A DNA stretch of 43,158 nt. Source: Actinomycetota bacterium (GTDB lineage: Bacteria > Actinomycetota > Acidimicrobiia > Acidimicrobiales > Ilumatobacteraceae). Under the pieces are notes generated by a model, which ran no database searches, was not told the DNA's origin, and saw only the letters and a list, made by a program, of their open reading frames with translations. Positions 1 to 43,158 of the stretch are shown one piece after another; the stretch's first letter is position 1, and each line of letters begins with the position of its first letter. The stretch is taken from the NCBI GenBank assembly GCA_026393695.1, contig JAPKZR010000288.1, positions 1 through 43,158 of the forward strand, in the 5' to 3' direction. Both the position numbers and the translations under genes were made by a program.

Positions 1-228
1 ACCATCACCGCTGTTGGTCCGTGGATGTTGATCAACACCAACTCGGGCAAGCAGGTTGATGCCTCGCAAGAGTGGACCGACCCCGAAGCGTTTGCCACGG
101 GCTGTTGCGCCGATCTCCGCTCGGTCGCTCACGACGGCGGCGTTGTCACCGCCTACAACTACGGCCACCTAGCCATCTGGTACCCCAAGTCGGTGGCGCC
201 CACCCCCGCCAAGGTCAACATCCCCTAA
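1..228 (+). CDS. 3' end of a CDS truncated by the window edge; product unknown
   Basis: Frame 1 is open from base 1 to TAA at 226-228. The track ORF 25..228 is only the part after an internal Met. No family recognised. Confidence 0.45.
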   Translation, partial: TITAVGPWMLINTNSGKQVDASQEWTDPEAFATGCCADLRSVAHDGGVVTAYNYGHLAIWYPKSVAPTPAKVNIP

Positions 229-287
229 CCCCCCGCCCCACGCCCCGCCGCCCCCGCCCGCCGCCCCCCAGATCCCCGGTTTTTGCG
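229..287. repeat. C-rich low-complexity tract (G-runs on the minus strand) ending in T5, abutting palindrome copy 1
   Basis: Direct reading: ccccccgccccacgccccgccgcccccgcccgccgccccccagatccccggtttttgcg. Read on the minus strand it is the same kind of A-tract plus G-rich tail seen after copies 2 and 5. Confidence 0.8.
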
Positions 288-336
288 TGCATGGGCGCGA
301 TTTGGGACAACTGCTGTCCCAAAGCGCGCCCATGCA
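288..336. repeat. 49-bp palindromic intergenic repeat, copy 1
   Basis: TGCATGGGCGCGATTTGGGACA-ACTGC-TGTCCCAAAGCGCGCCCATGCA. The arms are 22 nt with one mismatch (A opposite G). It lies between the stop of the truncated CDS and the DUF559 gene. Confidence 0.95.
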
Positions 337-405
337 ACGAGTTTGGTGATCGCCGATAGCGTTCCGAGAACTTCCCCGCAGATCTTGTCTCTCGTGGAGG
401 TTCTC

Positions 406-1341
406 ATGGATCCTGTTTGGCGTCTGTTGATGAACGACTGGCTGTGTGCGCACGCCGGAGTCATCTCAACTTCGCAGTTGCTTGCGTTCGGTTGCGAACG
501 TCGGATGGTGTGCCGCATGGTCGAGCGCCACGAACTGGTGCCCATGTTCGCTGGCGTGTTCCGCAGCGCGCATTGGCCGCACGGGCGAGATCAGCTGATG
601 ACCGCCGCATGCGTTGGCAATCCCAATGCGGTGGTGGCGTTCACCACGGCCGCGTCGCTGTGGGGATTCCGGCGCCTGCCGCACGACTCGGGTGTGCACG
701 TGCTCGTACCCCACGGTTGTTCGCCGACTTTCGATGGTGTCACGGTGCATCGATGCCGGCGAATCGACGCGATCGACATCGTGCAGCGCGCCGATGGCAT
801 CCGCCTCACCAGTCCAACGCGCACGTTGTTCGACAGCGCCGACCAGTTGGGCATCGAGTCGGCGTCGTCGGTGCTTGAGCAGCTCATCAACGACGGCCGC
901 GGCACGTTTGCCACGCATGCCAGCACGGTTGCCCGCCTCGGCCATTCGCGTCGGCCTGGCACGCGCACCATGGTGAAGGTCATCGGCTCGCGACCCGCAT
1001 GGCGCAAGGCCATGCAGTCTGATCTTGAAGCGCGGGTGCTCAACGAGATGGCTCGTCAGAACCTTCCGGTGCCGCGGGTTCAGTATCCATTTCGGATGCC
1101 CGATGGTCGGCGCATCCGATTCGATTTTGCGTGGCCAACCTTGCGCGAGGCGCTCGAGGTCGACCATCCGTTCTGGCATGCGGGCGCATCCGAGTCGCAT
1201 CGCGACAAGCATCGAGACCGCAAAATGGGCACGGTCGGATGGCATACAACTCGCATCACCAGCCTCGACATCGACGGTGGCCTCCGCGAGTCGATCGCCG
1301 ACATCGCTGCGATCTTGGCTCAAGCCCGTCCCCACCGCTGA
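406..1341 (+). CDS. DUF559 / Vsr-like endonuclease-fold domain protein with an N-terminal AbiEi_4-like winged-helix region
   Basis: The C-terminus (...RIRFDFAWPTLREALEVDHPFWH...HRDRKMGTVGWHTTRIT) matches the DUF559 core pattern. The N-terminal half resembles the wHTH region usual in actinobacterial DUF559 proteins. GGAGG at 396-400 sits 5 nt before ATG 406. The track ORF start at 283 reads through repeat copy 1 and is rejected. Confidence 0.8.
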   Translation: MDPVWRLLMNDWLCAHAGVISTSQLLAFGCERRMVCRMVERHELVPMFAGVFRSAHWPHGRDQLMTAACVGNPNAVVAFTTAASLWGFRRLPHDSGVHVLVPHGCSPTFDGVTVHRCRRIDAIDIVQRADGIRLTSPTRTLFDSADQLGIESASSVLEQLINDGRGTFATHASTVARLGHSRRPGTRTMVKVIGSRPAWRKAMQSDLEARVLNEMARQNLPVPRVQYPFRMPDGRRIRFDFAWPTLREALEVDHPFWHAGASESHRDKHRDRKMGTVGWHTTRITSLDIDGGLRESIADIAAILAQARPHR

Positions 1342-1371
1342 CCCCGACTCAGCATCGTCCCCAAACCCTGT

Positions 1372-1420
1372 TGCATGGGCGCGATTTGGGACAACTGCTG
1401 TCCCAAATCGCGCCCATGCA
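1372..1420. repeat. 49-bp palindromic intergenic repeat, copy 2
   Basis: TGCATGGGCGCGATTTGGGACA-ACTGC-TGTCCCAAATCGCGCCCATGCA, with perfect 22-nt arms. It lies between convergent genes (DUF559 stop 1341, hydrolase stop 1494). Confidence 0.97.
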
Positions 1421-1482
1421 GACAAAAGCAGGGCTGGAGAGCGTGGAGAGCGTGCCGGGCGGAGTTGAGAGCCGGGCGGAGT
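1421..1482. repeat. A-tract plus G-rich tail of copy 2, built from short direct repeats
   Basis: The tail starts gacaaaag. GGAGAGCGT is then tandemly duplicated (1436-1444, 1445-1453), and GCCGGGCGGAGT occurs twice (1454-1465, 1471-1482). Confidence 0.85.
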
Positions 1483-1493
1483 AGGGGAGTGGG

Positions 1494-3149
1494 CTACTTG
1501 GCGGTGATGCCGGTGCCGGTTGGGATGCTGATGGAGATCGCGCTGAAGTCGATCTTGCCGCCAAGGCGCGGCTGGGCGTAAGCGACCGTGGTGGCCACGA
1601 TTTGCAGGGTGACGCTGGTGCCGGGGTGTGCAGTAAACGCAACCACCTCAAGCGGAACTGTCACCGTGTGCGGCTGGCCATCGAGCGTGACAGCGATGGG
1701 CGTGATCTGGTTGCCGAGCACCAGTCCGGTGGCGTCGTCGACTAGTTGAGCGAACACCCGAGTAGGCCGCACGCCATCGGGCGTGCTGCCGCTATAGGTA
1801 ATGGTCAGTTCGGGTGCGCCGATCATGATCGCAGTAGTTGCAGATGCAACTACTTTCACATCGACGGCATTGGTTGCCTTGGCTGGCGTGATCGGTGGAA
1901 CCACTGCATCGAGAATCGATCCGGTGCTTGAGTCGGTTACCGGGCCCGCTCCGCCGTCGGCCGTGAGCGACAGCGATCCGCTGCCCTCGGCCTTGAGGGC
2001 AGCGCCGGCAGCAACGGGGTAGTCGTCGGCCACGTATGAGATGCCGTCTTGATCGACGAACTCAAACCGTGCGCCAGTACTCACTGCAGCATCCTGTTTC
2101 ACATAGCGATCGAGCCAGGCAATGCTGGCGTCGGATACGCGAGCAACATCGCCTGGCTTGGTGAGGCAGATGCCGTGGCCGCCGCAGAACCACATCATCG
2201 CCGACGGAGCGCCCGAGTTCTTGAGCAACGCAAAGTTGCTGATCGCTTCATCGAGCGAGAACAAGGTGTCGACGGTTCCCTGCACGATCAGAGTGGGAAT
2301 CTTGATCTTGCTGATCAAGTCACCAGGACCGCGGCTGGCAAACCAAGCCTTGTTTTCGTCGGACACAGTGCCGGTGTCCTTGCTCGAGGTGTTGGCATCG
2401 GTGATGTGCGGATCAACCTGGCGGCCGTTAGATACAAGCGTCAAGATGCCCGACCATCCGGTCTTGGCCGTGTCGGACTTGAACAAACTGGTGACCAACG
2501 AGTGCCACGCAATCACCGGCACGATTGCGTCGACACGGCAGTCGATCGCAGCAGTGACCAACTGGATGCCGCCGCCATACGAAGCGCCGATCATCCCCAT
2601 CCGTGGGTCGCCCGCTTGATCGAGTTCTACTGCAGGTTGTTCGGCAACCCAATCGATGAGCTGGCCAACATCGAGCGCTTCGTGGTCCACATCATCGATG
2701 GTGATGGTGCCGGTGGACTTTCCGAAACCGCGAGGATCCCACGTGAGCACGTTGTAGCCGGCGGCGCGCAATGTGGCGATGTTTACTTGGCCGAGGATGC
2801 CAACGACGTCGGGATTGGTGTCGCCACCCGAACCCCAGCCGGGCCCCATCAACACGGTTGGGGCCACCTCGCCAGATGCGAGTGACGGCAGCGGGAACCA
2901 ATGGGCGCGGATGATGGTGCCATCGAACGAGGTGATGTCGTAGTCGCTGGAGGCATCGGCAACAGCGGCGGCTGTGGGAGCGCCAGCGTCCTTCACCGAA
3001 CAGCCAGCCGAAGCAGCCTGCGTGTCGGCGGTAGCGGTATCTGTGGTGACTGAAGCCGGTGTCGACGGTGCAACTGACGAGTTGGCGGCGCTCGAAGAAC
3101 TGCATGCAGCCACGGTGAGCGCAGCAACGCACACCAAGGCCACCCGCAT
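1494..3149 (-). CDS. Secreted lipoprotein; alpha/beta-fold serine hydrolase (CocE/NonD / peptidase S15-like)
   Basis: MRVALVCVAALTVAAC is a lipoprotein signal with lipobox. GASYGG is a nucleophile elbow. The size and C-terminal beta-rich domain fit CocE/NonD-type hydrolases. Start is set at ATG 3149 because the longer track ORF (to 3272) reads through repeat copy 3. Confidence 0.75.
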   Translation of the reverse strand: MRVALVCVAALTVAACSSSSAANSSVAPSTPASVTTDTATADTQAASAGCSVKDAGAPTAAAVADASSDYDITSFDGTIIRAHWFPLPSLASGEVAPTVLMGPGWGSGGDTNPDVVGILGQVNIATLRAAGYNVLTWDPRGFGKSTGTITIDDVDHEALDVGQLIDWVAEQPAVELDQAGDPRMGMIGASYGGGIQLVTAAIDCRVDAIVPVIAWHSLVTSLFKSDTAKTGWSGILTLVSNGRQVDPHITDANTSSKDTGTVSDENKAWFASRGPGDLISKIKIPTLIVQGTVDTLFSLDEAISNFALLKNSGAPSAMMWFCGGHGICLTKPGDVARVSDASIAWLDRYVKQDAAVSTGARFEFVDQDGISYVADDYPVAAGAALKAEGSGSLSLTADGGAGPVTDSSTGSILDAVVPPITPAKATNAVDVKVVASATTAIMIGAPELTITYSGSTPDGVRPTRVFAQLVDDATGLVLGNQITPIAVTLDGQPHTVTVPLEVVAFTAHPGTSVTLQIVATTVAYAQPRLGGKIDFSAISISIPTGTGITAK

Positions 3150-3155
3150 CTTGTT

Positions 3156-3204
3156 TGCATGGGCGCGGTTTGGGACAACTCCTGTCCCAAACCGCGCCCA
3201 TGCG
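3156..3204. repeat. 49-bp palindromic intergenic repeat, copy 3
   Basis: TGCATGGGCGCGGTTTGGGACA-ACTCC-TGTCCCAAACCGCGCCCATGCG. It carries an A>G / T>C compensatory pair relative to copies 2 and 4. It ends 6 nt from the hydrolase start codon, in a divergent promoter region. Confidence 0.95.
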
Positions 3205-3281
3205 GGATGGGTGGACGTGGGGGAGGTGGCAGACGAGTGCGACCGGTGACGGGAGAGCAGCATGGGTGTCAAAGTATCAGG

Positions 3282-3303
3282 CTCGATATTGCGGCGTATC
3301 GAG
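3282..3303. promoter_or_regulatory. Inverted repeat CTCGATA-N8-TATCGAG in the divergent region upstream of the EF-G-like gene
   Basis: Direct reading. It sits in the locally AT-richer stretch of the 3205-3411 intergenic region. The binding factor is unknown. Confidence 0.3.
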
Positions 3304-3411
3304 GATCTATTGGGACTTCCGGCCCTAGTAGCCGCTCAGTCAACGGGCGTACCGTCCAGATCAGATTCGAATCGCTCGAACTAATCCGACAAGCGACCTC
3401 TCGGTCGAGAT

Positions 3412-5538
3412 ATGGGGCCTATCGCCGTGATGAGTTACCCAACCGACAAGATCCGCAATGTTGTGCTGGTCGGCCATAGCGGGTCTGGCAAGACCACGTT
3501 GGCAGAGGCTGTCTTGGTGAAGGCAGGAGCGATTGAGCGCGGTGGGCGTGTGGATGAAGGCACCAGTGTGCTCGACAATGAACCAGAAGAGATCCGTCGG
3601 CGGCTCTCGCTCACGCTCTCGATGGCGCCGTTCGAATGGCAGGCCCCCGACGGGCTGACCTACAAGATCAATCTGATCGACACTCCCGGATATGCCGACT
3701 TCGTCGACGAGGTCGATGCCGCGCTCGATGTTGCCGACCTTGCCGTGGTCGTGGTGAGTGCCGTTGATGGCGTCGAGTTGCAGACCGAACTGCTGTGGCG
3801 CAAGGTTGCCGAACGGGGCATGCCGCGCATGATCTTCGTGAACAAGCAGGATCGTGAACGCGCCGATTTCGATGGCGTGCTCGCTCAGCTGCGAGCAGTG
3901 TTTGGCGCAGCGGTGCTGGCGCTCGAGCTTCCACTCGGAGAGGCCGCGGCACTGCACGGGCTCGCCGATGTGCTGGCCGAAGAGGCACTCGAATACTCAC
4001 CGGGTCATCCGCGTCGCGTCGATGCGTTGCCGCAGGACATTGTCGACCGCGAACACGACGCACACATGGCGCTCGTTGAGGAGATCGTTGCTGGCGACGA
4101 CGAGCAGCTTGGCCACTACCTCGCTGGCGACGAGCTCAGCGTGGCTGATCTTGAGCGAACCCTCGCACGCGAAGTTTGCGAGTGTAAAGCGTTCCCGCTG
4201 TTGGTCGGGTCGGCTGCCACCGGCGTTGGGGTTGATCGTCTTGCTGACTTCATCTGCGAGCTTGCCCCGTCGCCGCTCGATCGCGCAGTCGGCGTGTTCG
4301 CGGCAGAACAAATGATTCCTGTTTCGGCCGATGCTTTGGGCTCGTCGTTGGCCTACGTATTCAAGACCGTTGCCGATCCGTTCGTGGGTCAGCTGTCGTT
4401 GTTCAAAGTGCTGTCGGGAACGATCACTGCCGACGATCGCTTGGTGAACGGCCGAACCGGTGGCGACGAACGGCTACGCACGCTGTTCACGCTGCGCGGC
4501 AAGGAGCAGGCGCCGATGGCGAAGCTTTCTGCGGGCGATATCGGCGGTGTGTCGAAGCTTGCCGACTCGCGTGCCGGCGACACATTGGCGCCGAAAGGTT
4601 TGCCGGTGTCGATGCCGGTCAACGATCGCCTCGTGCCGCAGTTTGGTGTGGCGATCACGCCTCGCACCCAAGCCGACGATGACAAGCTTGGCTCTGCGTT
4701 GAACAAGTTGCTGGCCGAGGATCCGTCCTTGCGACTTGACCATGTTGCCGAAACGGGTCAGACGATCTTGCGTGGCTTTGGCGAGATGCACGTAGCGGTT
4801 GCCATCGAACGGCTCGCCCGCAAGTTCGGGGCATACGTAGACACGGGAGAGGTGTGCGTGGCCTATCGCGAAACCATCGCTAGTACCGCCGAAGCTGCGG
4901 GCAAAGTAAAGAAGCAGACCGGTGGCCATGGCCAGTACGCGGTAGCGAACCTGCGTGTTGCGCCCTTGCTTCGTGGAGCCGGGTTCGAGTTCACCGATTC
5001 GATTGTGGGCGGGGCGTTACCTCGCACGTTTATCTCGGCGGTGCAAAAAGGTGTCGAGGAAGCGATGCTGCGCGGCGGCCTCTACGGCTTCCCCGTGGTC
5101 GACGTTCATGTTGATTGTTTCGACGGCAAGTTCCACTCGGTCGATTCAAGCGAGATGGCGTTTAGGTCGGCCGCTGCTCAGGGCCTCAAAGATGCGCTCG
5201 CCGCCGCTGGAGTGTCGGTGCTTGAACCAATTTCACTGGTCACCGTGACCGTGCCAAGTTTGTTCGAGGGCGAAGTGATGACTGACATCGTTGCGCGTCG
5301 CGGACGTGTGCAGGGCACCGATCTGGGTCCATACGGACAGCATCTGATTCATGCGCTGGTGCCCGCAAGTGAGTTGATGCGCTACGCCGTTGAGCTTCGT
5401 TCAATGACCGCGGGACGCGGGCAGTTCAGCGTGCAGCATGATCACTACGACACGCTTCCGGCTCACCTTGTGAAAAAGGCGGTCGAGGCGTCGCAACGCA
5501 CCACGGGCCATTCGTCGAAAGAGATGTCGACGAAGTGA
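3412..5538 (+). CDS. Elongation factor G-like translational GTPase (EF-G paralogue)
   Basis: G1 motif VGHSGSGKTTL, DTPGYADF (G3) and NKQD (G4), with full five-domain EF-G length. It is not in an rpsL-rpsG-fusA-tuf context. In-frame alternative starts are GTG 3427 and ATG 3430. Confidence 0.9.
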   Translation: MGPIAVMSYPTDKIRNVVLVGHSGSGKTTLAEAVLVKAGAIERGGRVDEGTSVLDNEPEEIRRRLSLTLSMAPFEWQAPDGLTYKINLIDTPGYADFVDEVDAALDVADLAVVVVSAVDGVELQTELLWRKVAERGMPRMIFVNKQDRERADFDGVLAQLRAVFGAAVLALELPLGEAAALHGLADVLAEEALEYSPGHPRRVDALPQDIVDREHDAHMALVEEIVAGDDEQLGHYLAGDELSVADLERTLAREVCECKAFPLLVGSAATGVGVDRLADFICELAPSPLDRAVGVFAAEQMIPVSADALGSSLAYVFKTVADPFVGQLSLFKVLSGTITADDRLVNGRTGGDERLRTLFTLRGKEQAPMAKLSAGDIGGVSKLADSRAGDTLAPKGLPVSMPVNDRLVPQFGVAITPRTQADDDKLGSALNKLLAEDPSLRLDHVAETGQTILRGFGEMHVAVAIERLARKFGAYVDTGEVCVAYRETIASTAEAAGKVKKQTGGHGQYAVANLRVAPLLRGAGFEFTDSIVGGALPRTFISAVQKGVEEAMLRGGLYGFPVVDVHVDCFDGKFHSVDSSEMAFRSAAAQGLKDALAAAGVSVLEPISLVTVTVPSLFEGEVMTDIVARRGRVQGTDLGPYGQHLIHALVPASELMRYAVELRSMTAGRGQFSVQHDHYDTLPAHLVKKAVEASQRTTGHSSKEMSTK

Positions 5539-6694: not shown

Positions 6695-8169
6695 CCACTG
6701 AAGCCAACAACGAGGCAGCGCAACGCCCGCTTCGATTCGCCATCATCGGCGCCGGTATGTCGGGCATTCTCAGCGCTATCAAGCTTTCCGAGGCTGGCTT
6801 CAACGATTACACGGTCTACGAAAAGGCCGAACGCCTTGGCGGAACGTGGCGAGAGAACACCTATCCGGGCATCGCTTGCGATGTGCCGTCGCACCTCTAT
6901 AGCTACTCGTTTGAGCCCAACCCCGAGTGGAGTCACCGCTTTGCTCCGGGTGCCGAAATTCAGGCCTACTTCGAGGGTGTCGCGCAGAGGCACGCAGTCC
7001 CTGAGCGCATCGTGTTTGGCACCGCAATATCTCAGGCCGAGTTCGTGAATGGCCGATGGAACCTCACCACTACCGACGGGCGCACCGACACCGTCGACGT
7101 GATCATTGCGGCCACCGGCGTGTTGCACCATCCCAACATTCCGCATCTCGACGGCATCGAGTCGTTCGCGGGGGCCTCATTTCACAGCGCGCGCTGGGAC
7201 CACAGCGTGCAGCTTGATGGCCGTCGCGTCGGCGTGATTGGCACGGGTTCTACGGCGGTGCAGATCGTGGCAGCGTTGGTCGATCAGGTCAGTGAGATCA
7301 CCATGTTTCAGCGCACGCCGCAGTGGATTGGCCCACAGGAAAATCCGGCCTTCACCGAGGCCGAGATTGAGCAATTCAAGGAACATCCCGAGATCATCAC
7401 GATGATGCGCGACGAAATTTCGCGCGGCTTCGCCGATCGGTTTTCGAATGCTGTGATCAACGCCGATTCGCCTGAGATGCAACTCATTGAGGCGGTTTGT
7501 AAGGCGCATCTCGAAGACAGCGTGCACGACCCGGTGCTGCGCGAAAAGCTGCGGCCCGACTATCGAGCTGCGTGTAAGCGCCTCGTCATTTCTGGCGACT
7601 TTTATTCGGCTATCCAAAAGCCCAAAGCCGAACTGGTCACCGAAGGCATCCAGTGCATCGAGCCAGGCGGCGTGCGCACTGTCGACGGGCAACTGCACGA
7701 ACTCGATGTGCTCGTGTTGGCAACCGGTTTCCGCGTCGACCGCTTCATGCGCCCGATGAATGTGATCGGTCGCGACGGCCGAGTGCTCGACGACGTGTGG
7801 GCTCATGGTCCAGTGGCAATGCTGTCGATCTCAGTGCCTGACTTCCCGAACCTGTTCATGCTCAACGGCCCCAACGGTCCGGTGGGCAACTTCTCGCTGA
7901 TCGAGGTGGCCGAACTGCAGATTGCCTACGTGCTCGAACTTGTCGAAGAGATTCGCGCCGGACGTTGCACACAGATCAGCGCAGGCCGCGAAGCCACGGC
8001 CGCGTTCGATGCTGCACGTAAAGAAGCCGCCAAGACCACGGTGTGGGCCACCGGCTGTCGCAGTTGGTATCTCGACGCCGATGGTATTCCAGCCACCTGG
8101 CCGTGGACCTTCGATCACTTCCGTCACGAGATGGCGGCACCCAAGATGGACCACTACGAACGCATCTAG
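6691..8169 (+). CDS. Type I Baeyer-Villiger / flavin-containing monooxygenase
   Basis: GAGMSG (FAD Rossmann), BVMO fingerprint FAGASFHSARWD (FxGxxxHxxxW[P/D]), and a second Rossmann GVIGTGSTAVQ. GTG 6691 overlaps the upstream stop (ATGTGA), with GGAG at 6682-6685. The track ORF extension back to 6115 overlaps the hydroxylase gene and is rejected. Confidence 0.88.
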   Translation: MTTEANNEAAQRPLRFAIIGAGMSGILSAIKLSEAGFNDYTVYEKAERLGGTWRENTYPGIACDVPSHLYSYSFEPNPEWSHRFAPGAEIQAYFEGVAQRHAVPERIVFGTAISQAEFVNGRWNLTTTDGRTDTVDVIIAATGVLHHPNIPHLDGIESFAGASFHSARWDHSVQLDGRRVGVIGTGSTAVQIVAALVDQVSEITMFQRTPQWIGPQENPAFTEAEIEQFKEHPEIITMMRDEISRGFADRFSNAVINADSPEMQLIEAVCKAHLEDSVHDPVLREKLRPDYRAACKRLVISGDFYSAIQKPKAELVTEGIQCIEPGGVRTVDGQLHELDVLVLATGFRVDRFMRPMNVIGRDGRVLDDVWAHGPVAMLSISVPDFPNLFMLNGPNGPVGNFSLIEVAELQIAYVLELVEEIRAGRCTQISAGREATAAFDAARKEAAKTTVWATGCRSWYLDADGIPATWPWTFDHFRHEMAAPKMDHYERI

Positions 8170-11812: not shown

Positions 11813-11874
11813 TCCATCCGCCTCGGCCGTCACCCTCCGCGGCCGTCGCCCTCATTATCCGCCGCAATCCCTTT

Positions 11875-11923
11875 TGCATGGGCGCGATTTGGGACAACTG
11901 CTGTCCCAAATCGCGCCCATGCA
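11875..11923. repeat. 49-bp palindromic intergenic repeat, copy 4
   Basis: Identical to copy 2 over all 49 nt. It lies between convergent genes (lipoprotein stop 11812, P450 stop 12015). Confidence 0.97.
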
Positions 11924-11993
11924 GCAAGGTTGAGGGCTGGGGGTGTTGAGGGCTGTGGCTGGGTGAGTTGGGGGGCGAGCGAGTGGGGGACGG
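11924..11993. repeat. G-rich tail of copy 4 with an internal direct repeat
   Basis: GTTGAGGGCTG occurs at 11929-11939 and 11945-11955. Further G-runs follow (GGGGG, GGG, GGGGGG, GGGGG). Confidence 0.85.
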
Positions 11994-20047: not shown

Positions 20048-23000
20048 TTACCTCCTGATGAGCACGCTCGACGCTGTACTGCCGCCGCGTGACGCAACCA
20101 CGTTGATGTTCGCATTCTGTGGAACGGTTGAACCCTTGGCAGTGAATGTCCAAGCGCCAAGGGCGTCAACGACTGCGGTGCCGATGAGCGTTCCGGCGCC
20201 AGGTACGTTTCCGGTGCGAACCGTGATGGTGTTGGCTAATGGAAAGCTTGCGGTGCCAGCGGCGGTCCACTGATTCTTCGTCGTGCGGAATTCGGTGCCA
20301 GCGGTGATTGTGACGGATCCAGCACTGGCGGTCACGGTTACATCGGCTGTCGAGGTCACGGTGCCACGGTTCGAAACGGTGACTCGGAACGACAGGTCCT
20401 TGAACTGTGCTGGCATGGTGAATGTGGGTCGTGCGGTGTCGGCTCCGGTGAGCACCACTGGAGTGCCGGTGAGTTGGGTCCATGCGAATGTGGTGGCGTT
20501 GCTTGAAGCCGATGCATCAAGCGTGACCACGCTCGACTGGTTGGCCGCAATCGGGGAAACAGCCTTCGCTACAGGAGCAGGGATCACCACGACGAAACCA
20601 GCGCCGGTGCCGGTGCCGTTGGGCGACAAGATGGTCACGTAGCCGGACGTGGCGTGTACCGGAACTGTGGCTGTGATCGTCGTGTCGTCCACCACGGTGG
20701 CTGCCACGATGGCGCCGTTGAAGCTCACCTGGGTAGCGCCAAGGAATCCGGTACCGGTGATCGTGACGAGAGTCCCAACCTCGCCGGACTCGGGGAGGAT
20801 GGACGTGACGTCGGCCAACGGAATCGCCACTGCGTCAGCAATTGTGGTGGTAGGTGCTGGCACGGTGACCGTGAATTGGCTCGGCGCCGCGACGTCTCCA
20901 TTTGGTGTGAGCACCTTGACATCGACAGTGCCCTCAAGTGATCCGACGGGAACGTTTACGGTGATGGTCGAGTCGTCAACAACCACGAATGAAGCGCTGG
21001 CCGAAATGCTTCCGAAGAGCACATCGGTGGCTGCGGTGAGGTGCGTACCAGTGATCGTGACGGCTTGTCCGACCTCGCCCGACGATACGTCGAGGCTGGA
21101 GACGGTTGGGGTCAGCGGGTTGTGGAGCACGTTGAATGGTGTTCCCGAACTCACGACTACGTCTGAAGCGACCGAGTTGATCGACGTGGAGTGAGCGATG
21201 GTGATCACGATGTCGCGGCCGCCCTCAGGGGCAAGCTTTGGCACCTGCACCTCGAGGCGAGTTGCGCTGATCACCTGGAACATTGCGTCGACGCCGCCAA
21301 TGGTCACCGTGGTGGCCTTATCGAGACCAAGGCCGCCGACATGAACGGAGCTGCCAGCGAGGCCGCCGATTGGGTCAAAACCCAGCAATGCAGGGGCGGT
21401 CTGGTCGAGCGCAGGTGTTGGTGTGATGCCCTGCGAAACCGCCGAGGCAGTCGGCAGATCGAGCAGCGATGAATCGCCAGCAAACGTTGTGGCATCGCCA
21501 TTCGGAATGAAGCTCAGGATTCGATCTGCGGCAGAAGATAACGGTGCGTTGCTGTAGACCGATGTGCCGATCGGGCCCGTGGGAACTCCGCCGGTGGCAG
21601 CGGCCGCAGCTGCAGCAATCGCCGCCAACATGCGTGGGTCGCTGTCTGAGTATGGAAATGGAGACAGTGGCTGTGGCGTTGCTTCGCAGCCTGTTGCTGT
21701 GCAGCCGCCTGGGCTGAGACGACGGTCAAGATTCCACGGGACTCCCTCAAAGGAGTACGGCATGTTGAAGGTGTCCAAGTTGAGTTCGAGGGCGTCTGGT
21801 AAGGCCATGCCGCCGAGGCTGATTCCGAGTGGGTTCAGATACTGGCCGTTTGTTGACTGAGCGCCATTGATGTCGATCGAGAGCAACGGTGCGAGAGAAG
21901 ACTCGGTGGCCTTCTTGCGGGTCTTGAAATGGATCTCGTGAGGGATCGGGCTCAAGACAGCGAACTCGTCGGCTTGCGAATAGGTGGTAGGGCACACGGG
22001 TGCAAACAGAACTTCGTGATTGAGTTGGGCGCATGGCGACAAGTTCGCAGTAGCACGCTTGGCGAAGTCGCTGTCGTAACGAATCACGAACGTGCCAGCG
22101 ACAACACCAGCACAGCTCAGCGCTCGGCCAGCGGCCTCGCAGCCCTTCGACGAAGCGAGTGGAAGCTCGTGGCTCTTGTTTGCGGCCGGGTCATAGTGCA
22201 CGCTCCAGCCGAGCACGTCGGCAACGGCCTCAGTGGTGGCGCCGATGAACAGCGAGCGAGCGCGCTGCAGCTGGAAGCCAGGCATGTCGATGAAGGCTTC
22301 GGTCAGGTGCATGTAGTCGGGCTGATCGGCAACCGCGCTGGTCTGCAATCCGTACGAGATCTGCGAGCTGTGCGCCGAAAGGAAGCGAACGCCGCCAACG
22401 GATTCGTAGTTGCCGTCGACAAGGATCGAATCGCCGAGCAGCAGCGGCGCCATGCGGCGCGAGTCGGCGGCCACTCGAAGTGGCGCACCAGCCGAGTCAA
22501 GGCGGTTCGTGGTCGGGCAGAACGTGTCGCCTGCCCCCGTTGCATCGCTCGGCGTTGGCAGCGCAAATTCTGGCAGCGTGGCGCTGGCTTGGCGAACTGT
22601 TGTGCTGGGGATGCACAGCGGGTAGCCGGTGGAGAAGATGTTGGTGTAGTTGTCGATGTCGAGCGCAAAACGAGGGTCAGCGCTGCAGTTCCTTGAGCTG
22701 ATGGCACAGCCCTTGCCGCTTTGCACGGTGTGGCGTGCGGTGGGGTCGTTCAGACGAACCATGGTGCCAGTCGTTGAGTCGCCTGGCCGGCCATTCATCA
22801 TGAACCAGCCCTCGTGGTAGTTCACATAGGTCACGGTGCCGTCGACATCTTCGAGGCCTTTTTCGATGAGCGCGTCGCCGACGATGACGTCACCTGTCGA
22901 CACGCGGTTCGCGGCGAGCGTGGCGATCGAGCCCGTGCCGGTGAGGTTGCATCGGTCGGCCTTGGCGAGTCCGGTTTCGCCGGTCTTGAGGCACGCTGCC

Positions 23001-23290
23001 GGTGCTTGCGCGAACAACTGCTGCAACGTGAGCCGGTTCGCTGGAAGATCAATCAGCAAGTTGCGCGGGATGATCACGTTCTGACCACCTACCACCATCT
23101 GCCCGCCGGCGTAGATGTCGCCAGCGACACCATCGGCGTTGAGCGTGATGCGTTCGATCTCGCCCACAATTCGACCTGACGTCGCCACGGCATGAGCTGG
23201 CGCAGCGTTGGTGAACGGAAGACCCACAGCAAGCACCGCCAGTGCAGCGAGAGTTTTGCGAAACATTGAGGTGTTGCTCGACGTATTCAT
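20048..23290 (-). CDS. Giant secreted protein 1: unrecognised Cys-rich N-terminal domain + IPT/TIG repeats + PKD-like domain + C-terminal Ig-like domain
   Basis: Signal peptide MNTSSNTSMFRKTLAALAVLAVGLPFTNAAPAHA. Three IPT/TIG-type units, e.g. SILPESGEVGTLVTITGTGFLGATQVSFNGAIVAATVVDDTTITATVP. A PKD-like unit VTLDASASSNATTFAWTQLTG. Start is set at ATG 23290, with ATG 23266 as an alternative. Confidence 0.85.
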   Translation of the reverse strand: MNTSSNTSMFRKTLAALAVLAVGLPFTNAAPAHAVATSGRIVGEIERITLNADGVAGDIYAGGQMVVGGQNVIIPRNLLIDLPANRLTLQQLFAQAPAACLKTGETGLAKADRCNLTGTGSIATLAANRVSTGDVIVGDALIEKGLEDVDGTVTYVNYHEGWFMMNGRPGDSTTGTMVRLNDPTARHTVQSGKGCAISSRNCSADPRFALDIDNYTNIFSTGYPLCIPSTTVRQASATLPEFALPTPSDATGAGDTFCPTTNRLDSAGAPLRVAADSRRMAPLLLGDSILVDGNYESVGGVRFLSAHSSQISYGLQTSAVADQPDYMHLTEAFIDMPGFQLQRARSLFIGATTEAVADVLGWSVHYDPAANKSHELPLASSKGCEAAGRALSCAGVVAGTFVIRYDSDFAKRATANLSPCAQLNHEVLFAPVCPTTYSQADEFAVLSPIPHEIHFKTRKKATESSLAPLLSIDINGAQSTNGQYLNPLGISLGGMALPDALELNLDTFNMPYSFEGVPWNLDRRLSPGGCTATGCEATPQPLSPFPYSDSDPRMLAAIAAAAAAATGGVPTGPIGTSVYSNAPLSSAADRILSFIPNGDATTFAGDSSLLDLPTASAVSQGITPTPALDQTAPALLGFDPIGGLAGSSVHVGGLGLDKATTVTIGGVDAMFQVISATRLEVQVPKLAPEGGRDIVITIAHSTSINSVASDVVVSSGTPFNVLHNPLTPTVSSLDVSSGEVGQAVTITGTHLTAATDVLFGSISASASFVVVDDSTITVNVPVGSLEGTVDVKVLTPNGDVAAPSQFTVTVPAPTTTIADAVAIPLADVTSILPESGEVGTLVTITGTGFLGATQVSFNGAIVAATVVDDTTITATVPVHATSGYVTILSPNGTGTGAGFVVVIPAPVAKAVSPIAANQSSVVTLDASASSNATTFAWTQLTGTPVVLTGADTARPTFTMPAQFKDLSFRVTVSNRGTVTSTADVTVTASAGSVTITAGTEFRTTKNQWTAAGTASFPLANTITVRTGNVPGAGTLIGTAVVDALGAWTFTAKGSTVPQNANINVVASRGGSTASSVLIRR

Positions 23291-23648
23291 GATTGCTTGC
23301 TCGATTCGATCTGCTGGGCCTGGTGGGCATCGGGCCACACGGGATGCTCTCGAAAACAAGAACCCCCGGATGACGTCCCACCATTTAGAACCCGGACAGG
23401 ACATACGGCAATACGTCGTACGAAGTAGTCCCTTTGGCCGCGTACCAGGTCGGCAGCAACGCTGCGAACGGGTGGTGATGCCTTCGGCTTCGAGGGGCTA
23501 GCGCCGACACGATCGAAGTCGTCACCGCGCTCGGCGAGACGTGCCGTGCTCGTGCGGAGCAATACAGGCAACGATCTCAGCAATTGCTCAACGAGTCGGA
23601 TGTCTCCTCAGTGCTGAGCAAGATGACGAGCGTGCATGCATCGAGCAC

Positions 23649-24232: not shown

Positions 24233-27200
24233 TCAGTTCCTGACTGTGACGGTGGCTGTAGCGCTGCCGCCACGGGAAGCCACCACGTTAATCGCAGTGT
24301 TCACCGGGATTGATGGATTGATGACCTGCAAGATCCACGCACCAGTTGCATCGACTGCCACCGTGCCAACCAAGGTTCCCGAGCCCACCACGTTGCCGGT
24401 GCGAATGGTCACGATGTTGGCACCGGGGAAGCTTGCCGTGCCGGCGGCACGCCATTCGGCTTTGCTGATGCGGTACTGAGGCGTTGCTACGGTAATCGTG
24501 ACGGAGCCCGGCAGAGCAGTGACTGTGACGGTGGCTGTCGAAGTTCGTGCCTGATTGGTGACCGTAACTCTGAAGGTAAGCGTCTGGAACAGCGCTGGCA
24601 TGGTGAACGAAGGCCGAGCGGTCGTTGCGCCGGTGAGTACAACCGTTGGGCCGGTGAGCTGCGTCCAAGCGAAGCTCGCAGCGTTGGTTGAGGCCGAAGC
24701 GTTGAGGGTGACCAAGCTCGATTGAGCGGCGCTCACTGGCGTGGTGACCACGGCGGTGGGCGTCGCTGCTGCCGCCACCGTAAAGGCCTTGCCAGCTCCG
24801 GTGCCGTTTGGCGAAATGATGGTCACGGTGCCGGTCGTTGCGCCAACGGGCACGGTTGCCGTGATCGTGGTGCTGTTCACCACAGTGGCTGGTGTCGTTG
24901 TTCCATTGAAGCTCACCTGGGTGGCACCCAGGAATCCGGTGCCGGTGATGGTGACCACGGTGCCGACCGACGAACTCGTTGGGTTGATTGACGTGATTGC
25001 CGCAGGGGCCGGAGGTGGTGGAGGCGGCACGGTAACGGTGAGCTGCGTGGCGGCAACAACAGTTCCATTTGGCGTGATCACGCTGACGTTGACCGGACCG
25101 GCGGTGGCCGCGAGCGGAATGTTGGTGGTGATCTGCGTACCGGCTGGGTTGACGCTGACGGCAGCGGAAAGTCCGCCGAACGAGACCGCAGTCGCACCGG
25201 AGAAGTTGGTGCCGTTGATGGTGACGACGCTTCCGATGTCGCCCGTTGCTGGGGTGAAGCCGGTGATGGTCGGGGCCAACGGGTTGGTGATAACCGTGAA
25301 CTGCGCAACCGACGTGAGGTTGCCGCTGGGCAAGGTGACCACGATTGAGCCTGCGCCAACGGTTGCGCCAACTGGCACCAACACGTCGAGGCGGGTGGCG
25401 CTAATCACGCTGAACATCGCTGCTGTGCCGTTGACCGTTACTGCAGTAGCGGTGTCGAGGCCGAGGCCGCCGACATGCACCATCGCACCCACCTGTCCCG
25501 ATGAGGGATCAAATCCCAGCAACGTCGGGCTTGGCTCGGTGAGTGATGGGGTGGGGGTGATGCCTTGCGATACCGCTGCTGCGGTTGGCAAGGCGAGCAC
25601 TGAGGCATCGCCTGCGAACGCCGTGGCCGTGTCGTTGGGGATGTAGCTCAGGATGCGGTCTTGGGCGTTCGAGAGCTGAGCGCTGGTGAACATAGGGTCG
25701 TTGTAGCGGTTGCTTGGCACGGCGCCACCGGGGGCGATTGCGCCAGCAGCCTGGGTGCGAGGATCGAGCTCTGAGTATGGGAACGGAATGAGCGGCTGCG
25801 GTGTTGATTCGCACACCCCGCCCGTTGCCTGACAGCCGCCAGGGCTGAGGCGGCGGTCAAGGTTCCACGGGATTCCTTCGAACGAGAACGGTGCGTTGGC
25901 TAAGTCGAGATTGAACTCAAGGCCTTCGGGGAACGAGATTCCACCAAGGTTTGCGCCGAATGGAAACAGGTACTGGCCGTTGGTGGACTCAGTGCCCTTG
26001 ATGTCGATCGACTTCAACGAGTTGGTCGTGTCGGTCACCTTCTTGCGGGTACGGAAGTGGATTTCGTGCGGGACTGGGCTCAAGATGGCGAACTCTTGGG
26101 CGGCCATGTTGGCTGGGTCTGGGCAGGCGTTTGCAAAGAGTGGGTCGGCCCTGAGCTGGAGGCACGGCGAGAGCTTGGCTGCAGTTGGCTGCTTGACGAA
26201 GTCTGAGTCATAGCGGATCTTGAACAGGCCGGCTCCGAAGCCAACACACGTGCCGATGCCACCTGCGGTCTCGCACCCTTGGGTTGATGCCAGCGGCATT
26301 TCGTGGGCCTTGTTTTGCACGGGATCGTAGTGCACGCTCCAGCCGAGCACGTCGGGTGTGGGCAGCGTGGCGAAGCCGATAAACAAGCCGCGAACTCGCT
26401 GGTTCTGGAAACCCGCAACGTCGATTCCTGCCTCGTTGATGAACATGTAGTCGGGCTGGCCGGCGCTGGCAGAAGTCTGCAGACCATACGAGATGCTCGA
26501 CCGGAATGCTGAGAGGAAGTGGACGCCGCCGATGGTCTCGTAGTTTCCGCCGACAGTGATTGAGTCGCCCAGCATGATGGGCGCCATACGACGTGAGTCG
26601 GCAGCAATGCGCAAGGGGAGTCCCGATGGGCTCACCCGGTTGGTGGTTGGGCAGAACTGGTCGCCTGCGCCGGTTGTTGCGTTGGCGCCAGCGTTGGTGA
26701 GCAGACCGGTGATGACCGGTGTAGTGGCGCGGCCCGTGGTCACGGTGCTGGGGATGCACAGCGGGTAACCAGAAGTGAAGGCGTTGGTGTAGTTGTCGGT
26801 GTCGAGACCGAAGCGAGGGTCGGCGCTGCAGTTTGAAGATCCTGCGGCACAGCCGGGACCGCTCTGCAGCGTGTGCCGCGAGGTTGGGTCGTTGAGACGA
26901 ACTATGGTGCCGGTCGTTGGGTCGCCTTGACGGCCGTTGATGATGAACCAACCGCCGTTGTAATCGATGTAGGTGACGTTGCCTTGGACCAGTTCGGCAC
27001 CCTTTTCGATCAAGGCGTCGCCCACGATGATGTCGCCAGTCGAGACTCGGTTGGCCGAAAGTGATGCGGTGCCGCCCACTCCGGTGTGGTTACAACGATC
27101 GGTCTTGGCGAGACCCGTTTCGTGATTGGTGATGCACTCGGCTGGGGCTTGTGCGAACAGTTGCTGCAAGGTAAGGCGGTTCGCTGGAAGATCCAAGAGC

Positions 27201-27433: not shown

Positions 27434-27738
27434 TTCGATTTCGGGTGCCTGGTAGCAATCGGCAAGCGAAGTCCGGGGGCTTTGGTCGGGACTTCGCGTG
27501 CAATGGCCATTAGGCATTGGCGCCGGGGGTACAGACAAGAGGCCAATCGTCGTAGGTCTTTTTGATCCCGGGGGTACGCGGCGCGTGCCCCTAATCGGCC
27601 TGTCGGTGCGGACCGTTTCGCGCAACCCCTTGATCTGTAAGGCTTTCCGGATGGCATCCGCTGAGATGAGGTCGTACGACCGATGGTCAATTGGTCGATG
27701 CCCCAGCGATTTGGACGGCGACCGTGCTAGTACCTAGC

Positions 27739-35753: not shown

Positions 35754-35802
35754 CGCATGGGCGCGATTTGGGACAACTGCTGTCCCAAACCGCGCCCAAG
35801 CA
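35754..35802. repeat. 49-bp palindromic intergenic repeat, copy 5
   Basis: CGCATGGGCGCGATTTGGGACA-ACTGC-TGTCCCAAACCGCGCCCAAGCA, which is degenerate at both ends. It is followed by GACAAAAACGGGGGCTG (A-tract plus G-rich). It lies between the mgsA stop and the MaoC-like gene start. Confidence 0.93.
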
Positions 35803-41855: not shown

Positions 41856-41909
41856 GTCGTGACCCTACATGCGTGACCGTCGATGGCTGCAGTGGCCAAG
41901 CGGCGTGGC

Positions 41910-42890: not shown

Positions 42891-43083
42891 TTGGGGTCCC
42901 CCTGGACAAAGTGCAGCGCTGTTTCACGCATGCTGTAGACGAGCAACATCGCATGCACCTGCGGAGATGTCAATCGCTCTGAGGAGATTGGGCCAAAAGT
43001 CCACATGTGGAGCGACTCAAGACCTAGGACCAGCGCAACGGCACTTGCATCGCGCGCTCGCCGCTGACATCCGCTCGCCTCGT

Positions 43084-43132
43084 TGCATGGGTGCGGTTTG
43101 GGACAGCAGCTGTCCCAAACCGCGCCCATGCT
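43084..43132. repeat. 49-bp palindromic intergenic repeat, copy 6
   Basis: TGCATGGGTGCGGTTTGGGACA-GCAGC-TGTCCCAAACCGCGCCCATGCT. It has the same G/C compensatory pair as copy 3, plus one T opposite G. It shares the flank CATGCAACGAG with copy 1 in the opposite orientation. Confidence 0.93.
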
Positions 43133-43158
43133 CACGGGTTGGCGGCGCAGGTGTCAGG

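Follow-up and report, generated by a model that had tools for sequence, protein, structure and literature searches.

A single-gene cassette between palindromic modules in Acidimicrobiia that may be a new kind of self-contained DNA unit

What kind of unit is formed by a lone nuclease-like gene that sits between two copies of a palindrome, when the same palindrome recurs elsewhere in the genome? The question is raised by positions 229–1493 of the window, that is, of the whole 43,158-nt stretch of actinobacterial DNA that we analysed. To our knowledge, fusions of an AbiEi-type winged helix-turn-helix (wHTH) part with a DUF559/Vsr-like nuclease are frequent in Actinobacteria, occur there in multiple copies and lack an assigned role. 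A search of the literature on DUF559 in connection with palindromic repeats, AbiEi, or mobile elements with inverted repeats found nothing relevant.

We favour, with modest confidence, the reading that 229–1493 is a discrete single-gene cassette, an autoregulated unit of binding site and nuclease whose sites have been multiplied, the likeliest driver of the spread being its own nuclease. Such a cassette may represent a novel type of self-contained, possibly selfish DNA unit, in which the pairing of gene and palindrome recurs in dozens of related bacteria.

Anatomy of the cassette

The features of the cassette, and the solo copies of its palindrome in the window, are as follows.

229..288, no strand: left outer tail, a C-rich low-complexity run with the end CCGGTTTTTGCGT, within the block absent from the ELA314 relative
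288..336, no strand: palindrome copy 1 (PAL1), 22-5-22 with one mismatch (AAAG/ATTT), proposed AbiEi-type operator
336..405, + strand: putative promoter and 5′ leader, with TAGCGT at 357–362, CTTCCCC at 371–377 and a Shine-Dalgarno GGAGG at 396–400
406..1341, + strand: nuclease-fusion gene, 311 aa; residues ~1–200 AbiEi-like, ~215–305 a Vsr/DUF559/EDxHD-like nuclease domain
1372..1420, no strand: palindrome copy 2 (PAL2), perfect 22-5-22, beginning 31 nt past the stop codon
1421..1493, no strand: right outer tail, AGACAAAAG and then a G-rich run with short tandem repeats
3157..3203, no strand: solo copy 3, between divergent genes, 8 nt upstream of the S15 hydrolase start
11876..11922, no strand: solo copy 4, between convergent Abhydrolase_10 and P450 genes
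35755..35801, no strand: solo copy 5, 26 nt past the stop of an MGS-like gene and upstream of a MaoC gene, in tandem arrangement
43085..43131, no strand: solo copy 6, between the divergent genes of a 326-aa repeat protein and of DUF3048

The gene does lie between copies 1 and 2, as the original prediction had it. It is monocistronic between both palindromes, and its neighbours encode a 499-aa protein and a convergent S15 hydrolase. The start of the latter, near copy 3, is of lipoprotein type (MRVALVCVAALTVAAC). The DUF3048 gene beside copy 6 is located just outside the window.

The repeat is a 47–49-bp perfect palindrome that starts with (T)GCATGGGCGCG, lacks a GTAG head and has the core GGGCGCG...CGCGCCC. 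It is present six times in the window, where none is expected by chance, and half-site matches with up to 3 mismatches number 12 in the window vs 0 in 100 shuffles. Measured as 47-nt units, like the solo copies listed, copies 1 and 2 span 289–335 and 1373–1419. All six copies, which are those whose genomic context we give, fold into a 21–22-bp stem with a 5-nt loop (z = -5.7 to -9.1). In a search of the whole window at gathering thresholds, no Rfam family was matched. No U-tract or T-run follows the hairpin on either strand, a terminator scan of 150–3500 found none at any copy, and two of the six copies (3 and 6) are situated between genes that start divergently. The lack of a U-tract and the position of these two copies argue that the palindrome is not a terminator family.

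The tails of the two cassette copies read as had been described: the + strand past copy 2 is AGACAAAAGCAGGGCTGGAGAG and the - strand past copy 1 is ACGCAAAAACCGGGGATCTGGGGGG. What did not stand is their supposed asymmetry: solo copies are usually flanked by C-rich sequence on the left and G-rich sequence on the right, a pattern that reads the same after reverse complementing. The reverse complement of the left tail (ACGCAAAAACCGGGG...) resembles the right tail as well as the flanking sequence of solo copy 5, whose right flank AGACAAAAACGGGGGCTG matches the cassette outer tail. Similarly, copies 2 and 4 have common flanks (1348–1478 vs 11851–11981, 76%).

The claim that PAL1 and PAL2 form an inverted pair needs to be divided as well. 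An inverted alignment of 275–338 with 1370–1433 is 88% complementary, but on the + strand both copies have the loop ACTGC. Thus, the two are direct by their loops and inverted by their flanks alone.

The N-terminal part of the protein consists of a wHTH followed by an AbiEi C-terminal domain. PADLOC matched residues 16–182 to AbiEi (E = 4.8e-21), whereas in Pfam the sole match of the window protein was MTES_1575 (PF18741) at 21.1 bits, below the cut-off of 38.2; DUF559 (PF04480) was not matched in the same search. Among 26 relatives, with matches counted up to E = 0.01, MTES_1575 was found in all 26, AbiEi_4 in 14 and DUF559 in 11. NCBIfam gave no match for four family members. Sequence and profile searches of the PDB gave no meaningful match, and only fold comparison did.

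In that comparison, an AF2 model (pLDDT 86.9) was searched with Foldseek. Its N-terminus matched 6y8q (E = 8.6e-7) and 1zel (E = 6.9e-5), which have the AbiEi/Rv2827c fold, and its C-terminus matched 3r3p (TM 0.75) and 3hrl (TM 0.74), both scores normalised to the target. The C-terminal domain thus has the alpha/beta fold of Vsr-like proteins, and acidic and histidine residues of the active site are conserved: D240, E251, D253, H254, H258, H265, D267, R270 and D271 are invariant in 26 homologues of 55–72% identity. The wHTH and the Vsr-like nuclease of the original prediction are therefore both there, but the gene is not a plain DUF559 gene, since it has no DUF559 match and carries a complete AbiEi-type module.

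The region between PAL1 and the gene contains a conserved -10-like TAGCGT. The palindrome ends 21 nt before it, and the right arm of PAL1 extends to the expected -35 position. In nearly all homologue loci a block of the form ggTAGCGT/TATGTT...CTTCCCC is found between the upstream module and the ATG. A sigma-70 consensus scan of 150–3500 gave no match in this region, so the promoter is called from conservation.

The published operators of AbiEi consist of 23-3-23 inverted repeats overlapping the promoter and its -35 box, and for Rv2827c the bound sites are tandem pairs of these repeats, located between -1 and -131 (PMC3985639, PMC7319586). The cassette resembles these type IV AbiE toxin-antitoxin systems in two ways. 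The two-domain fold is shared over the N-terminal ~200 residues, and the predicted target consists of two ~22–23-bp inverted arms with a 3–5-bp spacer, sometimes as tandem pairs, located no more than ~130 nt upstream of the start and touching the promoter. It differs from them in that there is no DUF1814 (AbiEii) toxin gene among its neighbours while a nuclease domain is fused in cis, and in that operator-like sites also occur downstream of the gene and, in the genus, at many unrelated loci.

The fold of the N-terminal 200 residues, the 22-5-22 geometry and the promoter position strongly suggest that the protein binds the palindrome. Most likely, its AbiEi-type module would recognise the bracketing 49-bp sequence with one monomer per arm. 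Since PAL1 abuts the gene's own promoter, binding there would be expected to result in negative autoregulation, as for AbiEi and Rv2827c. PAL2 would be a second site at the 3′ end and/or a cassette end, possibly also an RNA 3′ hairpin; together with PAL1 and the outer C-rich/G-rich tails it would form the inverted ends of the cassette.

Gene and modules across homologues

To look at the palindrome near related genes was one of the checks suggested for this locus. In 46 metagenomic homologue loci, GGGCGCG-N25-CGCGCCC modules are ~60-fold commoner within 350 nt of a gene end than elsewhere: 48 are found in 27.9 kb beside homologues vs 5 in the other 179 kb. In loci L055 and L058 (20.9 kb each), all 7 modules lie within 165 nt of the gene. 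The check holds for this family but had been framed too broadly as concerning "DUF559 paralogues", as distant homologues below 40% identity in the 46-locus set carry no modules.

The arrangement at the gene ends is regular. Homologue modules are 22-5-22 with a 39-nt core. Those upstream end 71–129 nt before the start codon and are often present in 2–3 tandem copies, and those downstream begin 23–40 nt past the stop. The 3′ module is conserved in most loci, in inverted register relative to the 5′ module. In L082, L094 and L075 the outer half-modules would jointly make one long palindrome that is split by the gene.

The modules are lineage-specific and form inverted repeats. When upstream flanks were compared with reverse-complemented downstream flanks, the mean score was 68.8 for cognate and 24.3 for non-cognate pairs, and the cognate pair scored best in 22 out of 32 loci. 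The inner stem is kept by covariation (pairing 0.5–0.67 vs 0.3–0.44 in controls). Additionally, the closest paralogues (67–72% identity) are found in unrelated contexts, each with modules and C-rich/G-rich tails. These data support a specific link between the gene family and the palindrome family.

In three comparisons of filled and empty sites, the gene and its modules were present or absent together. At the window locus, the ELA314 relative, whose hydrolase is 87% identical, has a 27-nt spacer with neither gene nor palindrome (L120–L122). Within the right tail, ~1421–1454 belongs to the indel and 1455–1493 aligns to this spacer. At the GATase/nuoN site, the gene-bearing loci L075, L132 and L135–137 have modules and the gene-less L133 and L134 have none. 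The cassette would thus be gained or lost as one block.

The proposal that strains would differ in the presence of the unit was therefore borne out, but the target-site duplication expected with it was not: the window/ELA314 comparison has a single clean junction with CC microhomology only. One candidate duplication, the twofold repeat GCCGGGCGGAGT, was rejected: all of it is found on the right side, where it aligns to the spacer of the empty site.

Among the sampled loci there was no second identical copy of the gene. All variants of at least 90% identity occupy one locus, and the closest paralogue is 72% identical. Differing upstream neighbours had hinted at a multi-copy gene, a candidate that we rejected after BLAST traced them mostly to the same locus, cut at palindromes. 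The main clade is stable beside nuoN in many genomes. From the single site of the close variants and this stability, the gene appears to be largely vertically inherited.

The hydrolase at 1494–3149 had been taken for the next cassette. Copy 3 is indeed at its other end, yet in ELA314 the hydrolase is present with the same neighbours and without copies 2 and 3; it was therefore rejected as a second cassette.

Solo copies in the genus

Three metagenome-assembled genomes (MAGs) contain at least 37 exact-core copies of the palindrome, with the gene at the orthologous locus only. ELA314 has 1 exact copy vs at least 19 and at least 18 in the other two, numbers that are lower bounds because MAG contigs break at palindromes. 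At least 30 copies are solo intergenic ones beside unrelated genes, including convergent 3′ regions. In most, one flank is of the inner and the other of the outer type, rather than both being outer tails.

The palindrome is far better conserved than its surroundings. In 12 orthologous pairs it is 97.2% identical vs 77.4% for the 80-nt flanks, and six copies carry a compensated A.T to G.C change at stem position 12. Copy 3 is kept in ELA250 and ZH-Jul18-164. In the alignment, ELA314, from which the cassette is absent at this site, retains only TTTGCATGGGTGG there, a scar that is exactly the state left by deletion between two ATGGG direct repeats.

In other gene-bearing lineages solo modules are essentially absent. 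This suggests that the gene alone is not the cause of spread.

In one contig (L005), the left arm of a different solo palindrome (the TTTGAGACA variant, which follows the DUF3048 gene) is fused to the right side of PAL1 and the gene. This recombinant junction could be an assembly artefact.

Propagation, regulation or homing

According to the reading that we favour, the palindrome would have become perfect in the ELA250 / ZH-Jul18-164 lineage (Acidimicrobiia) and been copied to at least 30 solo intergenic sites, where copies are kept nearly invariant while the adjoining DNA diverges. The cassette nuclease may nick or cut bound palindromes, so that recombinational repair between copies would follow, and this is the most likely driver of their copying and homogenisation. 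Such nuclease-driven spread of the solo palindromes is speculative.

The fusions gain a concrete candidate DNA target, namely the GGGCGCG-N25-CGCGCCC modules that bracket each gene, as well as a cassette of defined structure. Should the nuclease act on these sites, the cassette would be a repeat-propagating system whose enzyme class had no earlier link to interspersed palindromes. This would broaden the REP/RAYT paradigm and would explain assembly breaks and rearrangements in genomes of freshwater Acidimicrobiia. If the protein only binds, the case would still be unusual: a repressor operator multiplied across a genome and held at 97% identity.

The alternative with the most weight is regulation only. 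The gene would be an autoregulated, AbiEi-type toxin-antitoxin-like or defence gene, with the upstream palindromes as operators and the downstream one as a 3′ hairpin or looping site; its nuclease would act elsewhere, e.g., on phage DNA, and solo copies would be extra operators (a small regulon or decoys) or neutral duplicates made by recombination. The AbiEi fold and PADLOC matches, the operator-like geometry and promoter position, the stable synteny beside nuoN and the failure to find either a target-site duplication or a multi-copy gene agree with this, as do the two window copies out of six in divergent promoter regions, where a bound repressor could control the neighbours. However, it leaves unexplained the conserved 3′ module in its inverted register, the outer C-rich/G-rich tails that travel with the modules and the many solo copies beside unrelated genes at 97% identity, and the AbiEii (DUF1814) partner is missing. 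We regard regulation only as a serious explanation, though on the whole an unlikely one.

The cassette of the favoured reading invites comparison with REP/RAYT systems. These are built of a Y1 HUH transposase (IS200/IS605-like TnpA, PF01797) and a 20–40-nt imperfect palindrome with a GTAG/CGTC-type head, in tens to hundreds of copies. Like REPtrons and REPINs, the cassette has a single gene flanked by a short palindromic repeat in inverted copies; this repeat varies together with the gene lineage and is dispersed as conserved solo intergenic copies, and a relative without the gene at this site has almost no copies. Unlike them, its enzyme is an AbiEi-type wHTH joined to a Vsr/PD-(D/E)XK-like nuclease, its repeat is a 47–49-bp perfect palindrome without a GTAG-type head that reaches tens per genome, not hundreds, and in most lineages its repeats are found only beside the gene. 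The original prediction had spoken of a REPtron-like unit. Searches with Pfam, PADLOC and Foldseek gave no match to Y1_Tnp, and with no HUH transposase the cassette is not a member of REP/RAYT.

A bolder version is that the REP/RAYT lifestyle was invented a second time, independently. The enzyme, an AbiEi-wHTH-Vsr-like nuclease either domesticated or selfish, would recognise the long palindrome, or the hairpin or cruciform extruded from it; by nicking the palindrome it would copy, homogenise and maintain the genome-wide palindromes and its own cassette. If so, the actinobacterial AbiEi-DUF559 fusions would be a new class of repeat-propagating mobile-element enzymes that are neither HUH nor DDE. 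We put this forward tentatively and think it rather improbable.

DNA transposons and MITEs offer a looser parallel. Here too, one gene lies between element-specific inverted ends made of repeated, predicted protein-binding modules, gene-less copies of the ends are scattered in intergenic DNA, and assemblies break at the repeats. In contrast, the cassette encodes neither a DDE nor a serine, tyrosine or HUH transposase, its one clean junction shows no target-site duplication, the sampled loci gave no further identical full-length copies, and its main clade is syntenic across many genomes.

Homing is the next candidate. Homing endonuclease genes lie in introns or inteins, or stand free at a cleavage site that their insertion disrupts, and the empty allele is cut. 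A free-standing gene of this kind would spread as solo palindromes are cut and repair from the PAL-gene-PAL allele inserts it; solo copies would be targets or PAL-PAL deletion scars. The cassette protein shares with EDxHD/Vsr-like homing endonucleases (I-Bth0305I) and DUF559 (NGO0050) the fold of its C-terminal ~100 residues, which superpose on the catalytic domain of I-Bth0305I in 3r3p, and the invariant E-x-D-H...H...D...R-D motif set, although it stays under the Pfam thresholds for DUF559/MTES_1575. The joining of a sequence-specific DNA-binding part to a small nuclease and the presence/absence polymorphism between close relatives are further likenesses.

Several junctions would also suit homing. 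In L005 the arm of a different solo palindrome meets the PAL1 side and the gene, and in L082, L094 and L075 the gene would split a long palindrome. As PAL1 and PAL2 are direct by their loops, recombination between them would yield a solo copy flanked by a C-rich and a G-rich tail, which matches the solo copies observed.

The location of the gene speaks against it: the gene is not in an intron, intein or phage, and all sampled strains have it at a single site. The sites of recognition type flank it intact, not split, so that the host would stay cleavable. The one clean empty site, in ELA314, contains no solo palindrome, which leaves homing into a pre-existing one unsupported there, and both empty loci on the GATase/nuoN side likewise lack a palindrome. 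Finally, in most solo copies the two flanks differ in type, one inner and one outer. Homing therefore seems to us quite unlikely.

The remaining idea, that the palindrome is a generic REP-like or terminator repeat, perhaps RAYT-mobilised from elsewhere, and that two copies flank the gene by accident, is hardly credible: six copies in 43 kb, in all types of intergenic region, could flank a gene by chance, and in one contig an IS30-like element is inserted in PAL1, as happens with IS elements and REPs. The missing U-tract, the two copies between divergent starts and the lack of an Rfam family match speak against this idea, and it is largely refuted by the absence of modules where the gene is absent, the cognate specificity of the flanks and the ~60-fold enrichment of modules at homologue ends in unrelated genomes and contexts.

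The fusion gene and its flanking palindromes

The window (43,158 bp, G+C 61.8%) contains six copies of a palindrome with the consensus (T)GCATGGGCGCGRTTTGGGACA-N5-TGTCCCAAAYCGCGCCCATGC(A). The first two, PAL1 and PAL2, flank a nuclease-fusion gene.

Palindromes and associated features in the window
289-335: palindrome copy 1 (PAL1), tandem intergenic region
406-1341, + strand: nuclease-fusion ORF between copies 1 and 2, with GGAGG ahead of it at 396-400
1373-1419: copy 2 (PAL2), convergent region
3157-3203: copy 3, divergent region
11876-11922: copy 4, convergent region
35755-35801: copy 5, tandem region
43085-43131: copy 6, divergent region
229-288, 1421-1493, 3204-3240, 11923-11990: low-complexity runs

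Half-sites matched the window 12 times, compared with 0 in 100 shuffles, and a repeat search of the window also grouped the copies (families D4 and I21-I25). Each of the six folds into a hairpin with a stem of 21-22 bp and a loop of 5 nt (z from -5.7 to -9.1). The palindrome matched no Rfam family, no U-tract follows the hairpins and a scan of 150-3500 for consensus terminators found none at the copies there. Since tandem, convergent and divergent regions are all occupied, we rejected the possibility that the palindromes are simply terminators.

The original prediction described a gene bracketed by inverted palindromes with outward-pointing tails. All of these elements are present: the surroundings of PAL1 and PAL2 (275-338 and 1370-1433) align in inverted orientation with 88% complementarity, and the outward tails read ACGCAAAAACCGGGG... 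for copy 1 on the minus strand and AGACAAAAGCAGGG... for copy 2 on the plus strand. However, both loops are ACTGC on the plus strand, so the pair is inverted by its flanks alone. Additionally, the usual flanks of solo copies (palindromes without an adjoining nuclease gene), C-rich on the left and G-rich on the right, are their own reverse complement, which makes the tail an unreliable mark of orientation.

Short-period low-complexity runs with this C-rich left and G-rich right arrangement edge the palindromes and cassette ends, and also occur in the flanks in L020, L044, L048, L055, L069, L070, L078 and L082. Examples are CCACGTCC x4 and GGAGTGCCGGAGAA xN. Their length differs among strains, and slippage at hairpins, repair synthesis or a G-quadruplex function may account for their origin.

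For the encoded protein, Pfam gave only a sub-threshold MTES_1575 match (21.1 bits; the cut-off is 38.2) and no DUF559 match. Among 26 aligned relatives (55-72% identity), MTES_1575 was matched in all 26, AbiEi_4 in 14, DUF559 in 11 and AbiEi_1 in 4. PADLOC models of AbiEi, the antitoxin/repressor of the AbiE system, cover residues 16-182 (E = 4.8e-21). In the AlphaFold2 model (mean pLDDT 86.9), the first ~200 residues resemble Streptococcus agalactiae AbiEi (6y8q, E = 8.6e-7) and Rv2827c (1zel). The last ~100 resemble I-Bth0305I, a homing endonuclease, in its catalytic domain (3r3p, TM 0.75 on the target), and also NGO0050, a DUF559 protein (3hrl, TM 0.74). D240, E251, D253, H254, H258, H265, D267, R270 and D271 of the nuclease domain are invariant in the 26 relatives. 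Together, the profile matches, fold matches and invariant residues identify the protein as an entire AbiEi-type repressor fused to a Vsr/EDxHD-type nuclease. The proposed DUF559 assignment stands for the fold and for part of the relatives, but not for profile matches of the window protein itself. No DUF1814 (AbiEii) toxin gene lies near the fusion gene. Its homologues are found in Ilumatobacteraceae and other Acidimicrobiia.

Palindromic modules at homologous genes

The gene neighbourhoods of the closest paralogues are unrelated. P0002 (72% identity) has a Zn ABC transporter on one side and a beta-lactamase-fold gene on the other; P0003 and P0004 (67-68% identity) are flanked by a betaine ABC transporter and a DAO/GCV_T gene. 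On either side of each of these paralogues we observed 39-nt GGGCGCG-N25-CGCGCCC imperfect palindromes, here called modules. Often two tandem modules stand upstream and one or two downstream, with a C-rich tract farther left and a G-rich tandem-repeat tract farther right, and a ggTAGCGT...CTTCCCC block is kept between the upstream module and the ATG.

A metagenome scan for homologues returned 60 loci, 46 of which were scored. These held 48 modules within 350 nt of gene ends (27.9 kb) and 5 elsewhere (179 kb), a roughly 60-fold higher density beside the gene. In L055 and L058 (2 x 20.9 kb), all 7 modules lie at most 165 nt from the gene. Spacing is stereotyped, as upstream modules end 71-129 nt ahead of the start codon and downstream ones begin 23-40 nt past the stop. 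No module was scored at homologues below 40% identity in the 46 loci. When the flanks were read, diverged modules turned up in several loci that had been scored negative.

At many loci (L075, L082, L094, L069-L081) the two outermost modules are mutually reverse-complementary, so that the gene is bounded by element-specific inverted repeats. Mean scores for local alignment of the upstream with the reverse-complemented downstream flank were 68.8 (cognate pairs) and 24.3 (non-cognate pairs). In 22 of 32 loci the cognate partner scored highest, the exceptions being mostly close relatives. Across 49 distinct modules the outer 7 bp are fixed and positions 8-10 unpaired, while pairing at positions 11-17 occurs in 50-67% of modules and drops to 30-44% when halves come from different modules. 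Covariation thus maintains an inner stem or a matched pair of half-sites.

Thus, within Acidimicrobiia, one clade of AbiEi-nuclease fusion genes is consistently enclosed by operator-like palindromic modules of its own. The expectation that paralogues would be flanked more often than by chance was borne out, and the association is real and more general than could be known from the window. A literature search of limited coverage found no paper tying AbiEi-DUF559 fusions to flanking repeats.

Operator-like geometry and known systems

AbiEi represses its own promoter by binding two 23-bp inverted repeats that lie 3 bp apart (23-3-23, 49 bp) and overlap the -35 box (PMC3985639). For Rv2827c the bound sites are two tandem pairs of 23-bp inverted repeats between -1 and -131 (PMC7319586). 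The window palindrome has a 22-5-22 geometry, also 49 bp, and modules in relatives are often paired in tandem no more than about 130 nt from the start. PAL1 ends 21 nt upstream of a conserved -10-like TAGCGT (357-362), so its right arm extends to the -35 position.

From homology we infer, as the best-supported mechanistic step, that the protein binds the palindrome and autorepresses through PAL1: occupying PAL1 next to its own promoter, the fusion protein would repress its own expression. Operator geometry, the fold match and lineage-specific covariation all point to this.

The palindromes may be cut by the nuclease and owe their spread to it; a serious rival is that palindromes and fusion gene serve regulation only. 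The unit's predicted sites share their binding logic with AbiEi operators. We know of no AbiEi system with such a module also at the 3' end, set in inverted register and with outer tails, features that give the locus its transposon-like, REPtron-like look. The predicted REPtron-like unit holds as far as layout is concerned, which is that of a REPtron. We rejected membership of that family, as REPtrons have an HUH transposase, absent here, the repeat is of another type and copy number is low. With EDxHD homing endonucleases the protein shares its nuclease fold.

Solo copies and variation at the locus

The unit at 229-1482, proposed as possibly mobile, varies as a block between relatives. In the related MAG ELA314 (JBAXHD01) the neighbourhood is collinear and the hydrolase 87% identical, and only 27 nt, holding neither nuclease gene nor palindrome, separate the stop codon of the hydrolase from that of the 499-aa upstream gene. 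As an indel, the difference covers roughly 229-1454, from the left tail through PAL1, the gene and PAL2 into most of the right tail. No target-site duplication was found there. However, every variant of the window protein with at least 90% identity is located at this one site; any jumping of the unit is too rare to show in population data.

Most clade members are found at a single conserved position, with a C26 glutamine amidotransferase gene on one side and nuoN on the other. There, gene-bearing loci (L075, L132, L135-L137) have modules and the gene-less L133 and L134 have none; with ELA314, gene and modules co-occur in three independent comparisons. In many Acidimicrobiia this main-clade home directly follows the NADH dehydrogenase operon, with the gene convergent to nuoN, an oddly stable position for an element with transposon-like ends.

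In an exact-core search of one genome per species (at least 40 stretches listed), the core occurred, among the matches listed and besides 3 chance matches, only in three related MAGs: at least 19 copies in ELA250 (the window's species), 18 in ZH-Jul18-164 and 1 in ELA314, lower bounds as the MAGs are fragmented. The window is covered by ELA250 contigs 175, 86 and 29, whose breaks fall at palindromes. Among the stretches listed the gene is present only at the orthologous locus L015. Solo modules are essentially absent from other lineages (46 scored metagenomic loci), so the spread is specific to the window's genus, where the module has turned into a perfect, longer palindrome and multiplied as conserved solo copies. 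Six of the ELA250 copies fall within the 43-kb window around the gene, which is suggestive of local spread but subject to selection bias.

Across 12 orthologous solo copies of ELA250 and ZH-Jul18-164 the palindrome is 97.2% identical and the 80-nt flanks 77.4%. Stem position 12 is A.T in 34 cases, G.C in 6 and mismatched in 5, and the loop is ACTGC (19) or its complement GCAGT (12), whatever the flank type. Either selection or homogenisation is thus acting on the palindromes. At the copy-3 site ELA314 reads TTTGCATGGGTGG, the exact product of a deletion between two ATGGG direct repeats; copy 3 is therefore ancestral and was lost in a genome without a cassette at the nuclease-gene site.

The hydrolase has a lipoprotein-type start, and copy 3 lies 8 nt ahead of it. 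Automatic calls run this S15 hydrolase ORF through copy 3 (568-592 aa; window 3149-3272). The ATG at 3149, with no obvious Shine-Dalgarno ahead of it, yields a typical lipoprotein signal peptide (MRVALVCVAALTVAAC), which places copy 3 before the real start.

Two metagenomic contigs have junctions at PAL1. In L005 the left arm of another solo copy (a TTTGAGACA variant, found downstream of a DUF3048 gene and equal to L017:4869 in ELA250) is fused to the right side of PAL1 and the gene. This MEGAHIT contig (1-4079) runs through window 41515-43158, the DUF3048 gene, a seventh palindrome and window 336-1407. The junction could be a recombinant at a palindrome or an assembly artefact; the contig as a whole could be chimeric, could reflect a duplication or the junction of a circle, or could show the gene relocated to another palindrome. 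L004 (1-1268) joins the window at 305, within PAL1, whose left arm is replaced; abutting the middle of PAL1 is the gene for an IS30-like transposase (381 aa, HTH_38 + rve). The arrangement resembles insertion of an IS into the palindrome; some IS elements are known to target REPs.

Elsewhere, strain-level deletions of 323 and 749 bp (window 7268-8017 against L001 and L003), with no palindrome at their breakpoints, remove part of an FMO-like monooxygenase gene in some metagenome contigs. Two tandem paralogous genes (20048-23404 and 24233-27625, both on the minus strand; 1118 and 1130 aa, 69-77% DNA identity) carry TIG/IPT and PKD-like domains near each C-terminus and probably encode surface proteins. 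A 326-aa ORF (41910-42890, minus strand) without a Pfam match repeats a 39-nt (13-aa) Asp/Gly-rich unit at least 13 times and resembles calcium-binding repeat proteins.
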